A stretch of 64,000 nucleotides of DNA from positions 222,518,001 through 222,582,000 of the forward strand of contig OZ024742.1 in assembly GCA_964016885.1 (NCBI GenBank), in the 5' to 3' direction. This DNA is from Eledone cirrhosa. Taxonomy: Eukaryota. Positions 7,054-64,000 of this stretch are shown here, in pieces; the stretch's first letter is position 1, and each line of letters opens with the position of its first letter. The notes under the pieces are model-generated. The model did no database searches, was not told the origin of the DNA, and saw only the letters and a list, made by a program, of their open reading frames with translations. The position numbers and the translations under genes were made by a program.

Positions 7054-7204
7054 ATAAATGGAATAGAATGAAATGAAATTTCATTTCTCACTCTTAGTAC
7101 GCCACTTACTTAAATGTATGTATGTATACGTACATACATACTTACATTTAAGTAAATGCTGTACTAAGAGTGAGAAATGAAATTTCATTTCATTCTATTC
7201 CATT

Positions 7205-15994: not shown

Positions 15995-16278
15995 TAAAGA
16001 CGATGTAATGCATTTTGAATGGAATTATGGTAGTGGTAGTAATGGTGGTGATGGTCATGATGATGATGGTAGTGGTGGTCATAATAATTATGATTAATGG
16101 TGATGTTGATGATGATGATGATGATGATGCATCCTAGCTGGGAATAGAATTATAATAAAAGAAGACAGACCTACACACCCATACAAGTTGTGTCTCATAG
16201 GAGGTTTCTCATGTTTTGTAATGATAGGGGCCACAGTTCTATCATGTTGTTACAGCTCACACCTATACAGATGTAGCT

Positions 16279-17325
16279 GGACTTGTATGAAGTTGTGTCT
16301 CATAGGAGGTTTCTCGTGATTATAGGGGCCACAGTTCTATCATGTTGTTATAGCCCACAGCTAGACTTGTATGAAGTTGTGTCTCATAGGAGGTTTCTCA
16401 TGATTATAGGGGCCACAGTTCTATCATGTTGTTATAGCCCACAGCTAGACTTGTATGAAATTGTGTTTCATAGGAGGTTTCTCATGATTATAGGGGCCAC
16501 AGTTCTATCATGTTGTTATAGCCCACAGCTAGACTTGTATGAAATTGTGTTTCATAGGAGGTTTCTCATGATTATAGGGGCCACAGTTCTATCATGTTGT
16601 TATAGCCCACAGCTAGACTTGTATGAAATTGTGTTTCATAGGAGGTTTCTCATGATTATAGGGGCCACAGTTCTATCATGTTGTTATAGCCCACAGCTAG
16701 ACTTGTATGAAATTGTGTTTCATAGGAGGTTTCTCGTGATTATAGGGGCCACAGTTCTATCATGTTGTTATAGCCCACAGCTAGACTTGTATGAAATTGT
16801 GTTTCATAGGAGGTTTCTCGTGATTATAGGGGCCACAGTTCTATCATGTTGTTATAGCCCACAGCTAGACTTGTATGAAGTTGTGTCTCATAGGAGGTTT
16901 CTCGTGATTATAGGGGCCACAGTTCTATCATGTTGTTATAGCCCACAGCTAGACTTGTATGAAATTGTGTCTCATAGGAGGTTTCTCGTGATTATAGGGG
17001 CCACAGTTCTATCATGTTGTTATAGCCCACAGCTAGACTTGTATGAAGTTATGTTTCATAGGAGGTTTCTCGTGATTATAGGGGCCACAGTTCTATCATG
17101 TTGTTATAGCCCACAGCTAGACTTGTATGAAGTTGTGTCTCATAGGAGGTTTCTCGTGATTATAGGGGCCACAGTTCTATCATGTTGTTATAGCCCACAG
17201 CTAGACTTGTATGAAATTGTGTCTCATAGGAGGTTTCTCGTGATTATAGGGGCCACAGTTCTATCATGTTGTTATAGCCCACAGCTAGACTTGTATGAAA
17301 TTGTGTCTCATAGGAGGTTTCTCAG
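16279..17325 (+). repeat. 84-bp tandem minisatellite, ~12.5 near-identical copies
   Basis: GTATGA recurs at 16285 and 16369 (period 84); variation is almost confined to three positions. Confidence 0.95.
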
Positions 17326-19317
17326 GTGTTTTATTGATAAGAGCCACAATCCTGTTATGGAGAGCAATGTGAAATAGAAAGAGAGAGAGAGTGGGGAGTG
17401 AGTTACTAATAAAATATTGTCTTAATTTAAAATATTTGAATCTTTATAATCATCATTGCTACCACCATCATCATAACTACCAGTATCACCACTACCACAT
17501 CATCACTACTACCACCACAACCAACATCATCACTACTACCACCACAACCAACAGCAGCAGCATCACTACCACCATCAGCAGCAGCATCACTACCACCACA
17601 GCCAACATCACCACAACCACCATCAACAGCATCACCACTACCACCACAACCAACATCATCACTACTACCACCACAACCAACATCATCACCACAACCACCA
17701 TCAGCAGCAACATCACTACCACCAATATCACCACTATTGTATGGCCTTGTGGTTAGAGTGTTTGATTTACAAATGTATGAAAGAAGAGGGAAAAAAAAAC
17801 AATTAATATATTGTGATAATATGATGCCGTAGGAAATGATTAATAATTTGTCTTGAACAATTTATCACAATTTCTATAAACATGGAACAGATTGAGCAAT
17901 AATTCCACTGAATTATTCATCTAGTTTCTTTGACAATTTATCAAACAATAAAATGGAGGTTTCTTCTGTTTTTCTTTATTTATTCTTATTTTTATTTTTT
18001 GCTGTTTGTTTTGGACAGTGTTTCAATTTAAAATGGTGTGTGTTTTGTTAGTTGCTCTGTTTCTCTATCTCTCTCCCTCTAGTTATCTACCTGTATCTTT
18101 CTGTCCTCTTCTCTCTCTCCCGCTTTCTCTCTCTCTCTCCCTCTCTCTCTCTCTCTCTCCCTCTCTTTCTCTCATTGAGAGAGAGAGATGGGTACGTGCT
18201 GTGTGTCTATCTAGCTCTTCTCTATCAATCTATTTATGTCCTCGCTCTCTGTCAAGAATTTTGAAAAATTTACAAAATTTGTGAATTATTTCCTTACAAG
18301 GATAGTAACTCAACATGTGGTTTTTGCATAAAATTAAGTTGGAAGATTTCAATTTTATTAGGAAATCTTTAAAATGAGTGGTTTTGTTTCATAGAACCAG
18401 AGGCAATTTGAGACTAGGTAGGTATCAAAACAGTTAACCTTTCCATGGTTATATTTCTAATGAAATAATCTATTTCAATTAATTATTGAAGAATTTTGAA
18501 ATATAATAAAATTATTAAGAATTTCATTGCTAAGTAAGTTAATGTATGGTTCCTATATATAATTATGTTGAAAGATTTTAATTTAAATAGGGACCTTTAA
18601 CTCATTTGATACTAAACAACAGGAAACCATCCCTAGTTCTGCAATACTTCTCTTCTTCTTCGCTTACTTATTCCTGAGAGGGTCATGGGGACAAAGTCCT
18701 CACACACTCCTTCCAACAGGTCCTGTCAGAAGCAACCATCTCCAATTGTTTATTTTAAAGTGTTTATATTAATCTAAAAACTTCCCATCCTAATTTTATT
18801 AGACAGCATTCAAGTTATGCTCCAAACAACAGCTTAATAAAAAGAAATTTAATTATATTACTAAATTACTCCAAAATCAACATGATTTAGGCTTCCATTA
18901 GAAATATGGAAATGAAAGTATCAAAATGGGTGATTTTGTAACATAGAACCAGTGGTGGGTTGACCAGGTTAGTATCAAAATGGTTAAAGATGTTATTCTC
19001 TAATGATGGTGGCAGCAGTGGCGAAGAGAAAACACTTTTCCAAGGTGCTGTATGTTCAGTGATATCAATTTTGGAATCAGGTTATTATGAAACAACCTCT
19101 TTTAAACATACATGTACACATGACCTGCATTCATACTATAATATATAGGTGCCGATATGGCTGCGTGATTAAGGAGCTCACTTCAGAACCACATGGTTTC
19201 AGATTCACTCCCACTGTATGGTGCCTGAGACAAGTGTCTTGGCCAATCAATGCTTTGTGAGTGGAATTTGGTAAGCAGAAACTGCAGAAGCTTGTTGTAT
19301 CATCATGTAATGTCCAC

Positions 19318-28972: not shown

Positions 28973-29059
28973 ATATATATATATATATATACACACTTCA
29001 ACAGCATTCTAATAAAAGTGTATATACATTTTTAGGAGACACTATATGTATATATATAT

Positions 29060-29382
29060 ATAGTGAAAGAATGAAGAGTAATATGGTTGGCTGTACAATA
29101 AGGGGCTTTATTTCAAGTACTGACAATTGTTTCATTGATCAGGTGAGTTTAGAGGTCGCTAATCGTGTCACTTGATCTCCAATATATTATTTACCTCTGA
29201 TCAACACATCAGAGCACGTAGATGTGTTGATCAGAGGTAAATAATGTATTGGAGATCAAGTGATGCAACTTCAAGCGATTAGCGACCTCTAAACTCACCT
29301 GATCAATGAAACAATTGTCAGGACTTGAAATAAAGCCCCTTATTGTACAGCCAACCATGTTACCCATCATTCTTTCACTATT
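29060..29382. repeat. ~150-bp-arm fold-back containing a hammerhead (29117-29217, minus strand, A9 mutated)
   Basis: Arms are nearly perfect; minus strand GTGCT-CTGATGT-GTTGATCAG-[insert]-CTGATCAAT-GAAAC-AATT-GTC-AGTAC. Confidence 0.75.
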
Positions 29383-29540
29383 ATTACTCTAAGTATAACC
29401 TGCATAGGAATTACCGCGAACTCGCTGCATAACTATGGAAGCATCTTGTTGAGTCAAACAAAGCCGTACGTTAAAACTATCCACGACACAGAGTACTCAC
29501 AACCTTTAACTGGATTACCCATAACGATAACTTGTTATCC

Positions 29541-51463: not shown

Positions 51464-52367
51464 ATGAGCTGCACCAGTGAGGTTGGTATCTCACCAGTCT
51501 TGTTGCAGGTTATTTCACACACTCTCACATCTACAGAGGCCAATTCAGAAAATTGTCTGAACAATAATTCACTTGAGAAACACAGAGACACCAATGGATT
51601 CAGATTACACGAGTACAAGTCAAAGGATGTTAATCCCAATATCCTACATATCAATACCAACCAGAATTCTGAGAGGAAAATACTCCCTATTCTACATGGG
51701 CTACACCAACCCACAGAATCTCTCATCAATCAAGTTCAAACAGACTCCAATGGTCTTACAGAAAATGTTACAACTGAGACGACACCAGATCTAAAAGCTA
51801 TGCTCAAATTAAAACTTGACCAGGGATCACACGTTAAACCAAATTCAAATCCAGTGATCTTCTCACGGGGTGACCCAAACGTTGTAAATGTATTTACAGC
51901 AATAAACAACAGTGAGAATAAATCAAAGAACCTTGTATTTGAATTAAACCAAACAATTAAACTCGACGGAGTGAAGTGTGCTGGACAAGAAGATGTTATA
52001 GTGTGTTTTAATCGAGACAGTTCATCGGTACCATCACCTGATAATGATGTTATTGTCTCAGACTCTGATAGCGGCATTGTGGATGCCTCAAAGAAAAGAC
52101 ATTTAACTATTAATACAAGCGATCAGGAATCACAGTCATCTCCTTTGAAATACACACGTCTCGAGGAAGATGAAAGTGTCCGAGGAGATGAGGAAAATAG
52201 TAACAGTACATCTCAGCCTGCCAATACAAACATTGAAACAGTCTATATTCATTCAGAGGAAATTATGTCTTTAAAGATTCCAGTTTCTTCAGTGACCAAT
52301 AACAATTCTCCATCTAAAGATCCCATAGGTAAAGAAAACTGTCCAATTTGTAATGACAAAGTATCTG
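51464..52367 (+). CDS. Hr39: NR5B/HR39-like nuclear receptor, coding exon A (A/B domain and start of zinc finger 1)
   Basis: Acceptor TTCTGCAG at 51461, ATG at 51464, open ~300 aa ending ENCPICNDKVS-G, donor G|GTAAGT (phase 1). Confidence 0.88.
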
Positions 52368-54466: not shown

Positions 54467-55033
54467 CAGGGGTTGGACAAAATAATGGAAACACCTAGCA
54501 TCATAGCATCATAATTTTGAAATATCTATAAAACCGTCAAAAGCTTGTTTATTTTTATTGTTCTCAAGGTGGTCGTTAAGTTCTGCAGTAATTTTGGGAG
54601 CTGTACTTTTGTGATACTTTCTAATAATTTGCGTAAGAGTCCGACGGTTCCTATCTGAAAGTTTTGGTTTTCTTCCGGAGTTTTGTTTCGACAAGGAGGT
54701 TTTTCCCTCTTTCTCAAAGGCTGTCATTACTTTCAAGACAGTACTTCTTGATATACCAAACATTTTGGCTGTTTTTGTTACGCTAGCGCCTGCCATACGA
54801 TCACCAACAATTTGACCTCTTTGAAAGTCCGATAGATCTGTCATTTTAATGAATTTTAATTACCTTTTTCTGATGATATCTGAAAAGAAACAGCAATTGT
54901 AACAAAACATATTAAGCAACACTAATAATAAATCAAAAAACATAAAAATAAACAAGCTTTTGACGGTTTTATAGATATTTCAAAATTATGATGCTATGAT
55001 GCTAGGTGTTTCCATTATTTTGTCCAACCCCTG
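54467..55033 (-). mobile_element. Internally deleted Tc1 element with ~90-bp perfect TIRs and the transposase N-terminal HTH region
   Basis: TA TSD at 54465-66 and 55034-35; TIR CAGGGGTTGGACAAAATAATGGAAACACC...; ORF 54844-54509 MTDLSDFQRGQIVG...GRKPKLSDRNRRTL...STAPKITAELN. Confidence 0.92.
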
Positions 55034-55782: not shown

Positions 55783-55962
55783 GTTACCATTATGGTATCT
55801 TCTCTTGTGAAAGTTGTAAAGGGTTCTTCAAACGGACTGTACAGAACAAAAAAGTCTACCAATGTCACCAAAAAAACTGTTGTGAAATAAATGTCTACAA
55901 TCGGAAGAAATGTCCTGCTTGTCGGTTTAATAAATGTCTTGAAAGTGGTATGTTATTGGAAG
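55783..55962 (+). CDS. Hr39: NR5B/HR39-like receptor, coding exon B (C4 zinc-finger DBD)
   Basis: AG|GT..., [23 protein letters not shown]...[20 protein letters not shown], donor G|GTAAGC; ESCKG P-box of NR5, and IFSC plus RKKCPACRF are HR39-type. Confidence 0.95.
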
Positions 55963-57483: not shown

Positions 57484-57962
57484 CTATCCGTCTTGATCGA
57501 ACACGTGGTGGAAGAAGTTCTTATGATGGTTGTTCACCACATGGCCGTACGCGAGACATTGTTGACAAACAGAAACTTCACAAACTGACCACCACAGCAA
57601 AACCAAAAAATCATCATCATCATCATCAACAACAACAACAGTCACAGCATTCCCAACGATCATTGGCCATTCCAAACATGACAATCCCAAAAGCTGGTCA
57701 GAACAAGGCTAGCCAGCTTGTTGCTATCCTGAGCCGTAACAGTAGTAGTTCGGAGGACAAGAAACCTTTTGTTCCACAAATTCTTACAGACATTATGAAT
57801 CTAGAATCATTACTATGTGATGACGAACCAAACACCCAAATTCTATTGGAAGACCCAACAAGTTATACATCTTTAATGCAGATTACTAAAGACGGTCCTC
57901 AGTAATCTGCATTAAAGATGTATAACTTGTCTGGTCTTCACTAGAATTTGGCAGCTATATCG
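57484..57962 (+). CDS. Hr39: NR5B/HR39-like receptor, coding exon C (FTZ-F1 box, hinge, LBD start); contains in-frame stops at 57903 and 57942
   Basis: CAG|CT gives AIRLDRTRGGRSSY; VPQILTDIMNLESLL (helix 1); ends in-frame AAIS|GTAAGT, phase 0 matching the next exon. Confidence 0.85.
57836..57951. repeat. 116-nt inverted-repeat hairpin inside coding exon C
   Basis: 57858-57887 is the exact reverse complement of 57901-57930 (30 bp), 13-nt loop; the stem extends about 21 nt further with 3 mismatches and 1 bulge. Confidence 0.95.
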
Positions 57963-59494
57963 GTAAGTACATCTTACTAGTAATGCATTCTTAGACTTTC
58001 ATACTGTCCTGATAAGAATTTAGTTGACACAACCCAAGGTTTTTGTCCAAGTTTGGTATCTGGTATTTATTTTAGATTTCTTTTTTATTGAACTAAGTTA
58101 TGGGGACATAAACAGACACATACATAAATGTAAACACAAACATGGATACACATATATAGACAGACACTCATATGCAGAGAGGTTACTTTGAGATGTATGC
58201 AGCCCATATGTAATCATACTCATCATGGGATCCTTTTTGAGGCAATGTTTTACGGCCACATGCCCTCCATGGAGTCAACCATTTTATTGTCCTATACCTA
58301 ATAATAAAAAAAACTTAGCTTATGACTTTTAAATTGTTTTGAAAATAATTAAGAATTTAGGGGGATTTAGTAATATAAATCACCATCATCATCGTTTAAT
58401 GTCCACTTTCCATGCTAGCATGTGTTAGACAGGTTGTCCCATTTGAGGCAAGTTGGGTCAGATGACCGTGTCTTGCTCATATAGAACTGTTTCCGGCTAG
58501 ATTTCTACTGCTGGATGCTCTTCCTAACGCCAACCACATTTACAGTGTGTGCTGGGTGCTTTTTGTCATTACACCTACATGACCACTTTACAGTGTGTGC
58601 TGGGTGCTTTGATAACTTTCTTATTATTAAGCTGATATTTAGAGCATAACTCAACAAAGGTTCTTACATAAGATAAATAAGCACTTTAAAATAAGCAGCT
58701 ATGTATTGTAGAACCAGGGGTAGTTTCAGGTTGTTTAAGCTGGTGTTTGGAACATAACTCATGGAAGGTTCTTACATAAAATTATCATGGAAAGTTTTTA
58801 GATAAATGAGTAAGATATGGTCATCTGATATGTTTTGTCTTAGAATGGGATGACCCATCCAAACCATGCCAGCATGGAAAACAAACGTAAAATGGATGAT
58901 GGTGATAAACATTTTAAATAAGAAACATTATATCATAGTACCTAGGGCGGTTTCAGGCAGTTTGGTAATAAAAATGTTTAACTGAAAATGATCTTAACAT
59001 CTGGTATAATTTGATACTCTCCTCAGTATGATGTGATCCAGAAGAACAATAGGCCTGACCTTCTCCAGCTGGTTTTGTCAGAGAGAAGGGAAAAATGTGT
59101 CCATAGATTAAAAATCCAATGATTTTATTTCTATTTTCTATTCATTCTTACGCCCTTTCTCAATGTGTAGAAAATATATTAATCTTACTTCGCATCAGAT
59201 TTAATTATGTTACCCTTTAAAACCTATTTCACATATCTAATTTTCAAAAGAATTTTTAGAAAGATAAATATCTTTGTGTACATGTAGTCTTCAGGTTATT
59301 GCTCTATCTCTATCTCTCTATCCATATGAATATATATATATATACATGAACATACAGTTGACTTAAGAAATATTTGGACATTTGAAATGTAGTCATCCCA
59401 ACGTAAACAACTATAATTTGAATCCACTTTTTTCTGTCACTAGGGGCACTTTACCCACTTTTTTCAACTATTGTTTATAGTGATCAACTATTAT

Positions 59495-61473: not shown

Positions 61474-61726
61474 ACTGATGACCAAATACTGCTACTTCAG
61501 AACTGTTGGTCAGATCTACTACTATTAGAATGCTGTTACCGATCTAAAGAGAAACCATCAGAAATTCGCCTTGCTCAAGGGGCTACCCTTTCAGTAAAAA
61601 CAGCTAAATCTCTTGGTTTGGACAGTGTAGTGTCAATGGTGGTGGAGTTAGCTGAGCAGTTAAATCGACTCAAAGTAGACCTGTATGAATTTGTTGGTCT
61701 AAAAGTATTGGTGCTCATTACACCAG
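61474..61726 (+). CDS. Hr39: NR5B/HR39-like receptor, coding exon D (LBD helices 4-8); gene continues beyond the window
   Basis: TTTCCAG|ACT; TDDQILLLQNCWSDLLLL...LKVDLYEFVGLKVLVLITP; donor G|GTAAAG. Confidence 0.93.
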
Positions 61727-62751: not shown

Positions 62752-64000
62752 ATCATCATCATCATCATCAACGTTTAACGTCCGTGTTCCACGCTTGCAT
62801 GGGTTTGGACGGGGGTAGTCCCACTTGAGGCAAGAGTGATTGTCTTGCTCGCATAGGACTGTCTGGCAGGTTTTCTACAGTTGGATGCCCTTCCTAACAC
62901 CAACCACATTTACAGTGTGGGTCTGGGAGGTTTTTACCGTGTTGCCTACACGGCCACATTACAGCGTGGACTGTGTGTTTTTTTGTCGTGACACCTACAC
63001 GATCTCATTTGTTTCGGCCTCGATGGCGCGGCACCAACATAACTTTACATAGAACGGGGTGGTGTGGATCGGGTGGGGGTGGGGGTGGTGGGACGGGGTG
63101 TATTTTGTTAGAGATGCCTACTGGCTGGAGTAGGTTTTACTATATATTTAGGTAAGGCGGGTCTTCTCTGTTACTGAGTACCGCCAAAGGTCTCGGTCCA
63201 GTGACATTGTCTTGGAGAGGTGTAAGTGTGTGATGTCGGAGTTTATCAGCTCGTCCCAGGTTTTTCTAGGTCTGCCTATTCCGTGACTACCGTCTATCTT
63301 TATTGCCCTGCACTTTGTTATACAGCTATCGACTTTCATGCGCATCACGTGTCCATACCAACGTAGCCTTCTCTCGAGTAAACAACATCTGATCCCTCTT
63401 ATCTCTAATTTTTTCCTTAGTTCGTTTATGCTTTGCCGTTCACGTATATTACTGTTACACATCCAGCGGAGCATGCAAGCTTCGTTCCTCTCTAGTCTGC
63501 GTATATCCTCTGCACACAATGCCCAGGTCTCACTGCCATGCAGCATTGCTGTTCGTATGCAGGCATCGTACAACCTGCCTTTCATTTTTAGTGAGAACCC
63601 TTTAGCAGCTAATAGTGGTATAAGCTCTCTGAACTTTTTCCAACCAGTTCTGACTCTAGCTACAGTACTTTCAGAGCACCCTCCCCCACTGCTGATTTTA
63701 TCGCCCAGGTAACGGAAGCTGTCCACTATTTCTATAGAACCCTCTGCGCAATTGAAAGAGCTAGTAGTTTGTGGGCACTTGCTGCTACTTATTGCACCAG
63801 AGCACCGGCCACATGTAAAATCTATGTTCTTAGTTAGCTTACCTGTGATCCCACTACATCTTTTATGCACCCATACTTTGCATTTAGGACATAAAATGGA
63901 GTTTCTACCTACGCCTTTCCTACACACCGAGCACGACCATTTCCCAGAAGGGACCGCCGCCTTGTTTTCTTTCCTACAAACTAGTACTTTGGTCTTAGCC
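62752..64000 (-). mobile_element. RTE-clade (RTE-X-like) LINE, 3' portion with uninterrupted ORF 63148-64000
   Basis: C..CRKGVGRNSILC..C..WVHKRC Cys/His insert, FRYLGD, ARVRTGWKKFREL, RRLRWYGHVMRM, GRPRKTW, followed by the 3' UTR and (GAT)n tail. Confidence 0.92.

Follow-up and report, generated by a model that had tools for sequence, protein, structure and literature searches.

The NR5B locus and its affected exon

The window (the entire 64,000-nt stretch of DNA that was analyzed) contains four of the five coding exons of a nuclear receptor gene; the fifth and last lies beyond the window at L013:4561-4838. Judged by its sequence, the gene is an octopod NR5B (FTZ-F1-beta, HR39-like) receptor: it encodes a zf-C4 DNA-binding domain and a ligand-binding domain (LBD), and its best matches are named FTZ-F1 beta. 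Homologs were found in 24 of 559 candidates, the best of them 82-84% identical over the affected exon, and the 85% identity of exon 1 to P0025 indicates that the source is another octopod. The NR5B proteins of Octopus and Argonauta (P0001, P0002, P0025) share the zf-C4 and Hormone_recep domains, this level of identity, and the same exon end, whereas the present gene differs from them in that the assembly has other sequence in place of the 21 helix-3 codons, and only of these. When metagenomes were scanned with P0025, no ortholog DNA was obtained (0 relatives from 330 pattern matches).

A normal helix 3 is present in all five coleoid-type proteins compared; in P0002 and P0025, the sequence directly following the equivalent of arm A (Table 1) is EDRLYKIVRWARNLSQFASIS. 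The two exons downstream of the affected one are identical to P0025 at 173 of 176 residues and free of stops, which, together with the complete identity of arm A (44/44), gives no sign of relaxed selection.

Table 1. Exons of NR5B and segments of the affected exon and adjacent intron (positions in the window)
Feature	Position	Strand	Evidence
NR5B first coding exon	51464..52367	+	85% identical to P0025 across 302 aa; GT donor
DNA-binding-domain exon (zf-C4)	55783..55962	+	PF00105 E 1.9e-22; 98% to P0025; AG/GT ends
Undamaged part of the hinge/LBD-start exon	57484..57887	+	No differences listed in X1, X3, and X4 contigs; 57598-57649 skipped as repeat
Arm A, genuine coding source of the inverted copy	57755..57887	+	57756-57887 44/44 aa identical to P0002 and P0025; mirrored across 57901-58048
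Hairpin loop, apparent inverted helix-3 start	57888..57900	-	Inversion gives TSYTSLMQITEDRL; 3 differences predicted in first 10 letters
Pure mirror of 57858-57887, with false stop TAA 57903-57905	57901..57930	+	30/30 mirror match; no run cover from 57907 (4/4 aligned runs)
Blend zone of mirror letters with the probable normal exon end and donor (GT, 57963); contains false stop TAG 57942-57944	57931..57968	+	27/38 mirror letters; 12 nt longer than orthologs
Intronic blend zone: mirror of about 57755-57822 and intron letters	57969..58048	+	64/80 mirror letters, 14 inserted
Intact LBD exon (TDDQILLL...)	61474..61726	+	PF00104 E 1.4e-7

Other features of the window include a tandem repeat with a unit of ~90 nt that is open for 366 codons (16277-17374, + strand) and two open frames on the minus strand, whose affiliations were judged by eye. 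One of them (54512-54859; 116 aa) is located in an intron of NR5B and resembles an N-terminal helix-turn-helix fragment of a Tc1-type transposase; the other (63151-63999; 283 aa) resembles the terminal part of the reverse-transcriptase ORF of a non-LTR retrotransposon.

A hairpin in the assembled exon

In the assembled sequence, an exact 30-nt arm (57858-57887) is followed by a 13-nt loop and by the exact reverse complement of the arm (57901-57930), and pairing reaches outward to 57836/57951. The folding energy of the hairpin is -67.9 kcal/mol (z -14.0), and none of 200 shuffles is as stable. The reading frame across it is KDGPQ-stop-SALKMYNLSGLH-stop-NLAAIS, with the TAA located 57 nt before the junction and the GT donor directly after AAIS; the product of the gene as assembled has 501 aa. 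The arms, the loop, the two in-frame stops, and the truncated product of ~501 aa, all of which had been proposed in the original prediction, are thus present in the assembled letters.

The exon with the hairpin is single-copy in the assembly. It had also been proposed that no other exon supplies helix 3, and a search of the assembly indeed uncovered no second NR5B helix-3 exon: all 20 candidates were scored, and the best of the nine resulting matches is the next exon of NR5B itself, the other eight being weak (32-39% identity) and situated at other loci.

The inverted copy extends into the intron

The inverted repeat is larger than the pairing to 57836/57951 that was described originally. In a gapped alignment, 57755-57887 is mirrored across 57901-58048, past the splice donor and as far as ~85 nt inside the intron; the inverted copy thus runs to 57755/58048, ~100 nt farther than described. 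The identity of the mirror falls with distance from the turn, from 30/30 (57901-57930) to 17/20, 10/18, 31/39, and 33/41 in the successive segments. Overall, 9 substitutions and 16 gap events separate the block from the mirror; insertions in the second arm account for 13 of the gap events, and an exact copy is limited to 43 nt (the loop and the adjoining 30 nt).

The loop is itself a short quasi-palindrome. Its reverse complement continues the reading frame of arm A as TSYTSLMQITEDRL, which is the sequence of the orthologs (...LMQIT-EDRL), and on the basis of this match the loop is best read as the inverted coding start of helix 3, comprising EDRL and one further base. Farther downstream, the codons for N-L-S (57924-57932) coincide exactly in register with those of the orthologs, whose exon end A-S-I-S-V-S (P0028) recurs as A-A-I-S-V-S, 12 nt late. 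The faint echo of the ortholog motif ELRLYKL...NL that had been noticed in the hairpin is real and is explained by the inverted EDRL of the loop and by N-L-S in register.

Sequencing contigs span the site with other letters

Sequencing runs were compared as contigs, which drop rare variants and represent at most three samples from two studies. Eight runs were listed, and four of them (X1, X3, X4, and X5) were aligned; the remainder comprised X2 and the reduced-representation runs X6-X8. Runs X1-X3 stem from one sample of organism A, so that X1 and X3 share a sample; X4 represents a second sample, and X5 stems from organism B, a relative.

In all four aligned runs, depth is 0 over 57907-57999, and three of the four span the site with other letters. 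In the case of X1 and X3, the flanks are matched almost exactly by one unbroken contig of 628 nt each (depth 8.4 and 9.8, respectively), which matches the assembly at 57650-57897 and 58008-58240 and has 105 different letters between these flanks where the assembly has 110. The contig of X5 spans 57897-58049 with 159 letters, compared with 151 in the assembly. None of the three joints listed for the four aligned runs changes strand. The contig piece ending at 57897 has three other letters in each of X1, X3, and X4, presumably placed within the loop, which is the count predicted for its inversion. The cover of X4 is confined to exons and continues 779 nt past 57897, with 584 nt required by an intact spliced mRNA to reach its stop; X4, which is not on record as RNA, behaves like a set of spliced-transcript contigs. 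Within the same intron, 58214-58266 is a very high-copy repeat fragment, on which the contig depths of each of the four aligned runs add up to thousands.

The shares of assembly words present in the runs (71 sampled words) are 0.70 for X1-X3, 0.55 for X4, and 0.14 for X5. If 57888-58045 were missing from the reads, genomic data would be expected to contain a share of 0.75 and exon-only data one of 0.56, compared with 0.88 if only the span noted originally were wrong. The observed values for X1-X3 and X4 fit the former, which indicates that the larger block, and not merely the span first noted, is missing from the reads. If the sample of X1 and X3 is the assembled individual, the assembly lacks the support of the very data behind it; if it is another individual, the assembled sequence is not that of the species' normal allele. 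The use of a cryptic donor near 57894, which had been proposed as a point to check, need not be invoked, because the site is accounted for by the contigs and the exon of the orthologs ends at the same ISVS junction.

Among the explanations originally offered, an artefact of assembly or polishing is supported by the aligned contigs that span the site with other letters. The same contigs largely refute the view that the sequence is real as written, i.e., that an old or compound inverted duplication has pseudogenized or truncated NR5B in the lineage or the individual. Although long hairpins are common in the vicinity (28 in 484 kb) and the assembly yielded no second helix-3 exon, decay of such a duplication would not leave a perfect 30/30 segment beside insertion-rich zones on one arm only, and the near-complete identity of the downstream exons to the ortholog also speaks against it. 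Moreover, the one other hairpin that was checked (29030-29400) is a high-copy palindromic repeat, whereas that of NR5B is single-copy. Taken together, a sequence that is real as written is very improbable.

The inverted repeats of the vicinity were counted in G000:C3:222318001-222802000 and comprise 28 non-simple cases with exact arms of at least 18 nt and spacers of up to 60 nt, after removal of low-complexity arms; within the window, the arms start at 7054, 15748, 29186, 42067, and 42176. Several of the 28 have arms of 150-200 nt, and one has an exact 181-nt arm with a 1-nt spacer. The excess of gaps is unique to the NR5B hairpin, the next most gapped repeat having 13 gap events together with 19 substitutions. 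The other 27 repeats were counted from the assembly sequence, and some of them could also be artefacts. The palindromic element at 29030-29400 (~340 nt) has many copies of 80-91% identity in the assembly (40 scored of 2,919 candidates) and looks from its sequence like a MITE or a fold-back repeat family.

The hairpin as a proposed functional RNA

A different proposal was that the exon encodes a functional double-stranded RNA, either a precursor of miRNA or siRNA or a substrate of ADAR whose edited stops would be read as tryptophan. The RNA hairpin is indeed very stable, and models of miRNA hairpins match it below threshold on either strand, but none of the 14 Rfam matches reaches the gathering score (the best attains 58.2 of the required 249 bits), and the hairpin is missing from organism B and from the spanning contigs. 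Reading both stops as tryptophan would result in 25 residues in place of the 21 of helix 3, i.e., four extra residues, with only 4/21 identities, so that editing would not restore helix 3; a normal helix 3 is present in all of the coleoid-type proteins compared (5/5). The exon-only cover of X4 stops matching at 57897, which is at most a weak hint in the same direction, since a part without cover does not count as evidence by itself. At 57904, 57905, and 57943, where editing would appear as A-to-G differences between RNA and DNA, the aligned runs provide no matching letters: their matching pieces end at 57897, and 57907-57999 is uncovered. None of the eight runs listed is on record as RNA or small RNA. 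In view of the missing arm, the Rfam scores, and the poor fit of the tryptophan read-through, the proposal is not supported, and its probability is close to nil.

A probable blend of mirror and normal letters

Where the letters of the reads become visible again, the assembly sides with the mirror. At 58039 and 58045, both the assembly and the mirror have G in place of the T of the reads, and the assembly lacks five letters that the reads carry within 58008-58048. Scored against the mirror at 58008-58060, the only stretch with visible read letters and thus the only one covered by this test, the assembly attains 39 and the read version 22, and none of 20,000 random edits of like kind reaches 39. 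The block is missing from the other data, and in this stretch the assembly deviates from the reads in the direction of the local reverse complement.

The normal sequence appears to have left its traces as well. The block 57888-58048 measures 161 nt in both the assembly and the read version, whereas the source of the mirror measures 146 nt, which indicates that its length follows the normal allele. The mirror is also traceable at 57969-58007, in which 31 of its 33 letters occur in order, compared with at most 26 in 500 shuffles. The normal codons for Gln-Phe are uninformative as a subsequence of 57933-57950, given that they arise in 64% of shuffles. Part of the distal mirror is natural: the read-supported intron at ~58009-58030 pairs with the exon at 57770-57789 (9-nt exact core, score 22; 0.45% of 2,000 shuffles). 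This pairing may represent a weak exon-intron duplex or a point at which the fold-back was re-anchored; the contig of organism B has no match to this intron stretch.

A proposed merger of a fold-back strand into the consensus

The explanation that we consider best, with a probability of about 0.9, is that 57888-58048 (161 bases) is a consensus blend, generated during assembly, in which a 146-nt fold-back copy is mixed with the normal end of the exon and start of the intron, superimposed on an intact gene. The hairpin would then be present in the assembly but most likely absent from the genome of the animal. One or a few of the sequenced molecules would have carried a fold-back strand, formed either during library preparation or in a single cell, when the 3' end at the polymerase turned at the short quasi-palindrome that starts helix 3 and copied the sequence from 57900 back to ~57755 (~146 nt). 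On its own, the quasi-palindrome at the hinge has no stable fold with DNA parameters (0.0 kcal/mol). Such a snapped-back strand would present arm, loop, and mirror on one side and arm, inverted loop, and mirror on the other and can lie in either orientation, and the fact that it is readable both ways would account for the inverted loop without a second mechanism.

Subsequently, the fold-back strand would have been forced onto the normal sequence when a consensus was formed, be it from the two strands of a molecule, in the correction of reads, or during polishing, with the mirror prevailing beside the turn (30/30) and both versions interleaved farther out. Circular-consensus callers drop disagreements between the two strands only above a length difference of about 20 nt, and with 146 versus 161 nt, the present case would stay below this limit and be kept.

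An alternative origin of the same copy is a real mutation, i.e., that the assembled individual carries a null allele, heterozygous or as a somatic mosaic, in which ~161 nt have been exchanged for a 146-nt inverted copy by a template switch of type 3-1-2-4, and that the assembler blended this allele with the normal one. The geometry is that of the type, which according to the portion of PMC5453318 available is an inverted repeat with an inverted spacer and together with its mirror case constitutes 23% of 794 events. An inverted loop that yields EDRL conforms to it, and there is complementarity at both ends. The size is also similar to that of replication-derived inverted fragments, for which the accessible text of PMC13334657 gives a median of 160 bp and 6-bp junctions.

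Other observations argue against such an allele. Short-read graph assemblers normally break a contig at an allele of this size that is present at 50%, and the unbroken 628-nt contigs, with depths of 8.4 and 9.8 and no joint that changes strand, therefore oppose a 50% allele in the sample of X1 and X3; a rare or private allele could still escape the contigs. A single continuous copy is not what the assembly contains, given the 9 substitutions, the 16 gap events, and the embedded normal exon end and donor, and even if the allele existed, the assembled letters would be a blend and not the allele itself. A recent template switch, as suggested originally, is thus consistent with the geometry of the block but not with a single recent event, which should have left an exact copy instead of one interleaved with normal letters. 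We regard a template-switched allele in the assembled individual as unlikely. It is equally doubtful that one NR5B allele (heterozygous or mosaic) was inactivated in vivo by a 146-nt template switch or a fold-back of an Okazaki flap and then blended with the normal allele by the assembler; such an event would have been guided by the natural complementarity that exists where helix 3 starts and by that of exon 57770-57789 to the intron. If the fold-back were nevertheless a real allele, it would document a long template switch within a coding exon that is conserved.

Comparison with known fold-backs

The block most plausibly belongs with the fold-back artefacts of long-read libraries. Such artefacts tangle assembly graphs and give rise to false variants, as stated in the Breakinator preprint (PMC12338684) and the HiFiRe3 preprint (10.64898/2026.06.24.734375). 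The former reports that whole-read foldbacks are virtually absent from HiFi data and amount to ~0.55-0.6% of nanopore genomic data, and in the latter, foldback inversions are among the main classes of filtered PacBio reads. The cases portrayed in these preprints resemble the NR5B block in that a sequence and its reverse complement lie one after the other at one locus without support from other data. They differ in that they concern whole reads with a clean junction, whereas in NR5B only ~146 nt are inverted, the normal sequence resumes, and the letters are blended.

Similar differences separate the block from mutations. In the 3-1-2-4 events covered by the available portion of PMC5453318, the template is copied in one piece and confirmed by resequencing, whereas in NR5B the copy is exact for 43 nt only and the contigs lack it. 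The small inverted triplications ascribed to Okazaki-flap fold-back in the accessible text of PMC13334657 are similar in size (median 160 bp versus 146 nt) and also have a short spacer and a reverse-complement junction of ~6 bp, but the NR5B exon is single-copy, with neither a DUP/IN/DUP structure nor a gain in length (161 nt in both versions). In the literature searched, no description of this locus or of a short, blended form of fold-back was found, and the available parts of PMC12312487 and PMC9949150 contain nothing on this kind of artefact.

Implications for NR5B

The orientation of the loop, the length of the block, the codon register, and the orthologs suggest that helix 3 is probably intact in this species and that the animal probably carries an ordinary, intact receptor. 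An artefact of this type can be screened for from sequence alone by three marks: the arm is perfect beside the turn, the loop consists of inverted coding sequence, and one arm only has an insertion-rich tail. The finding is a practical warning and not new biology: annotators would call NR5B truncated or pseudogenized, or would propose its rescue by editing, although the gene is probably intact.
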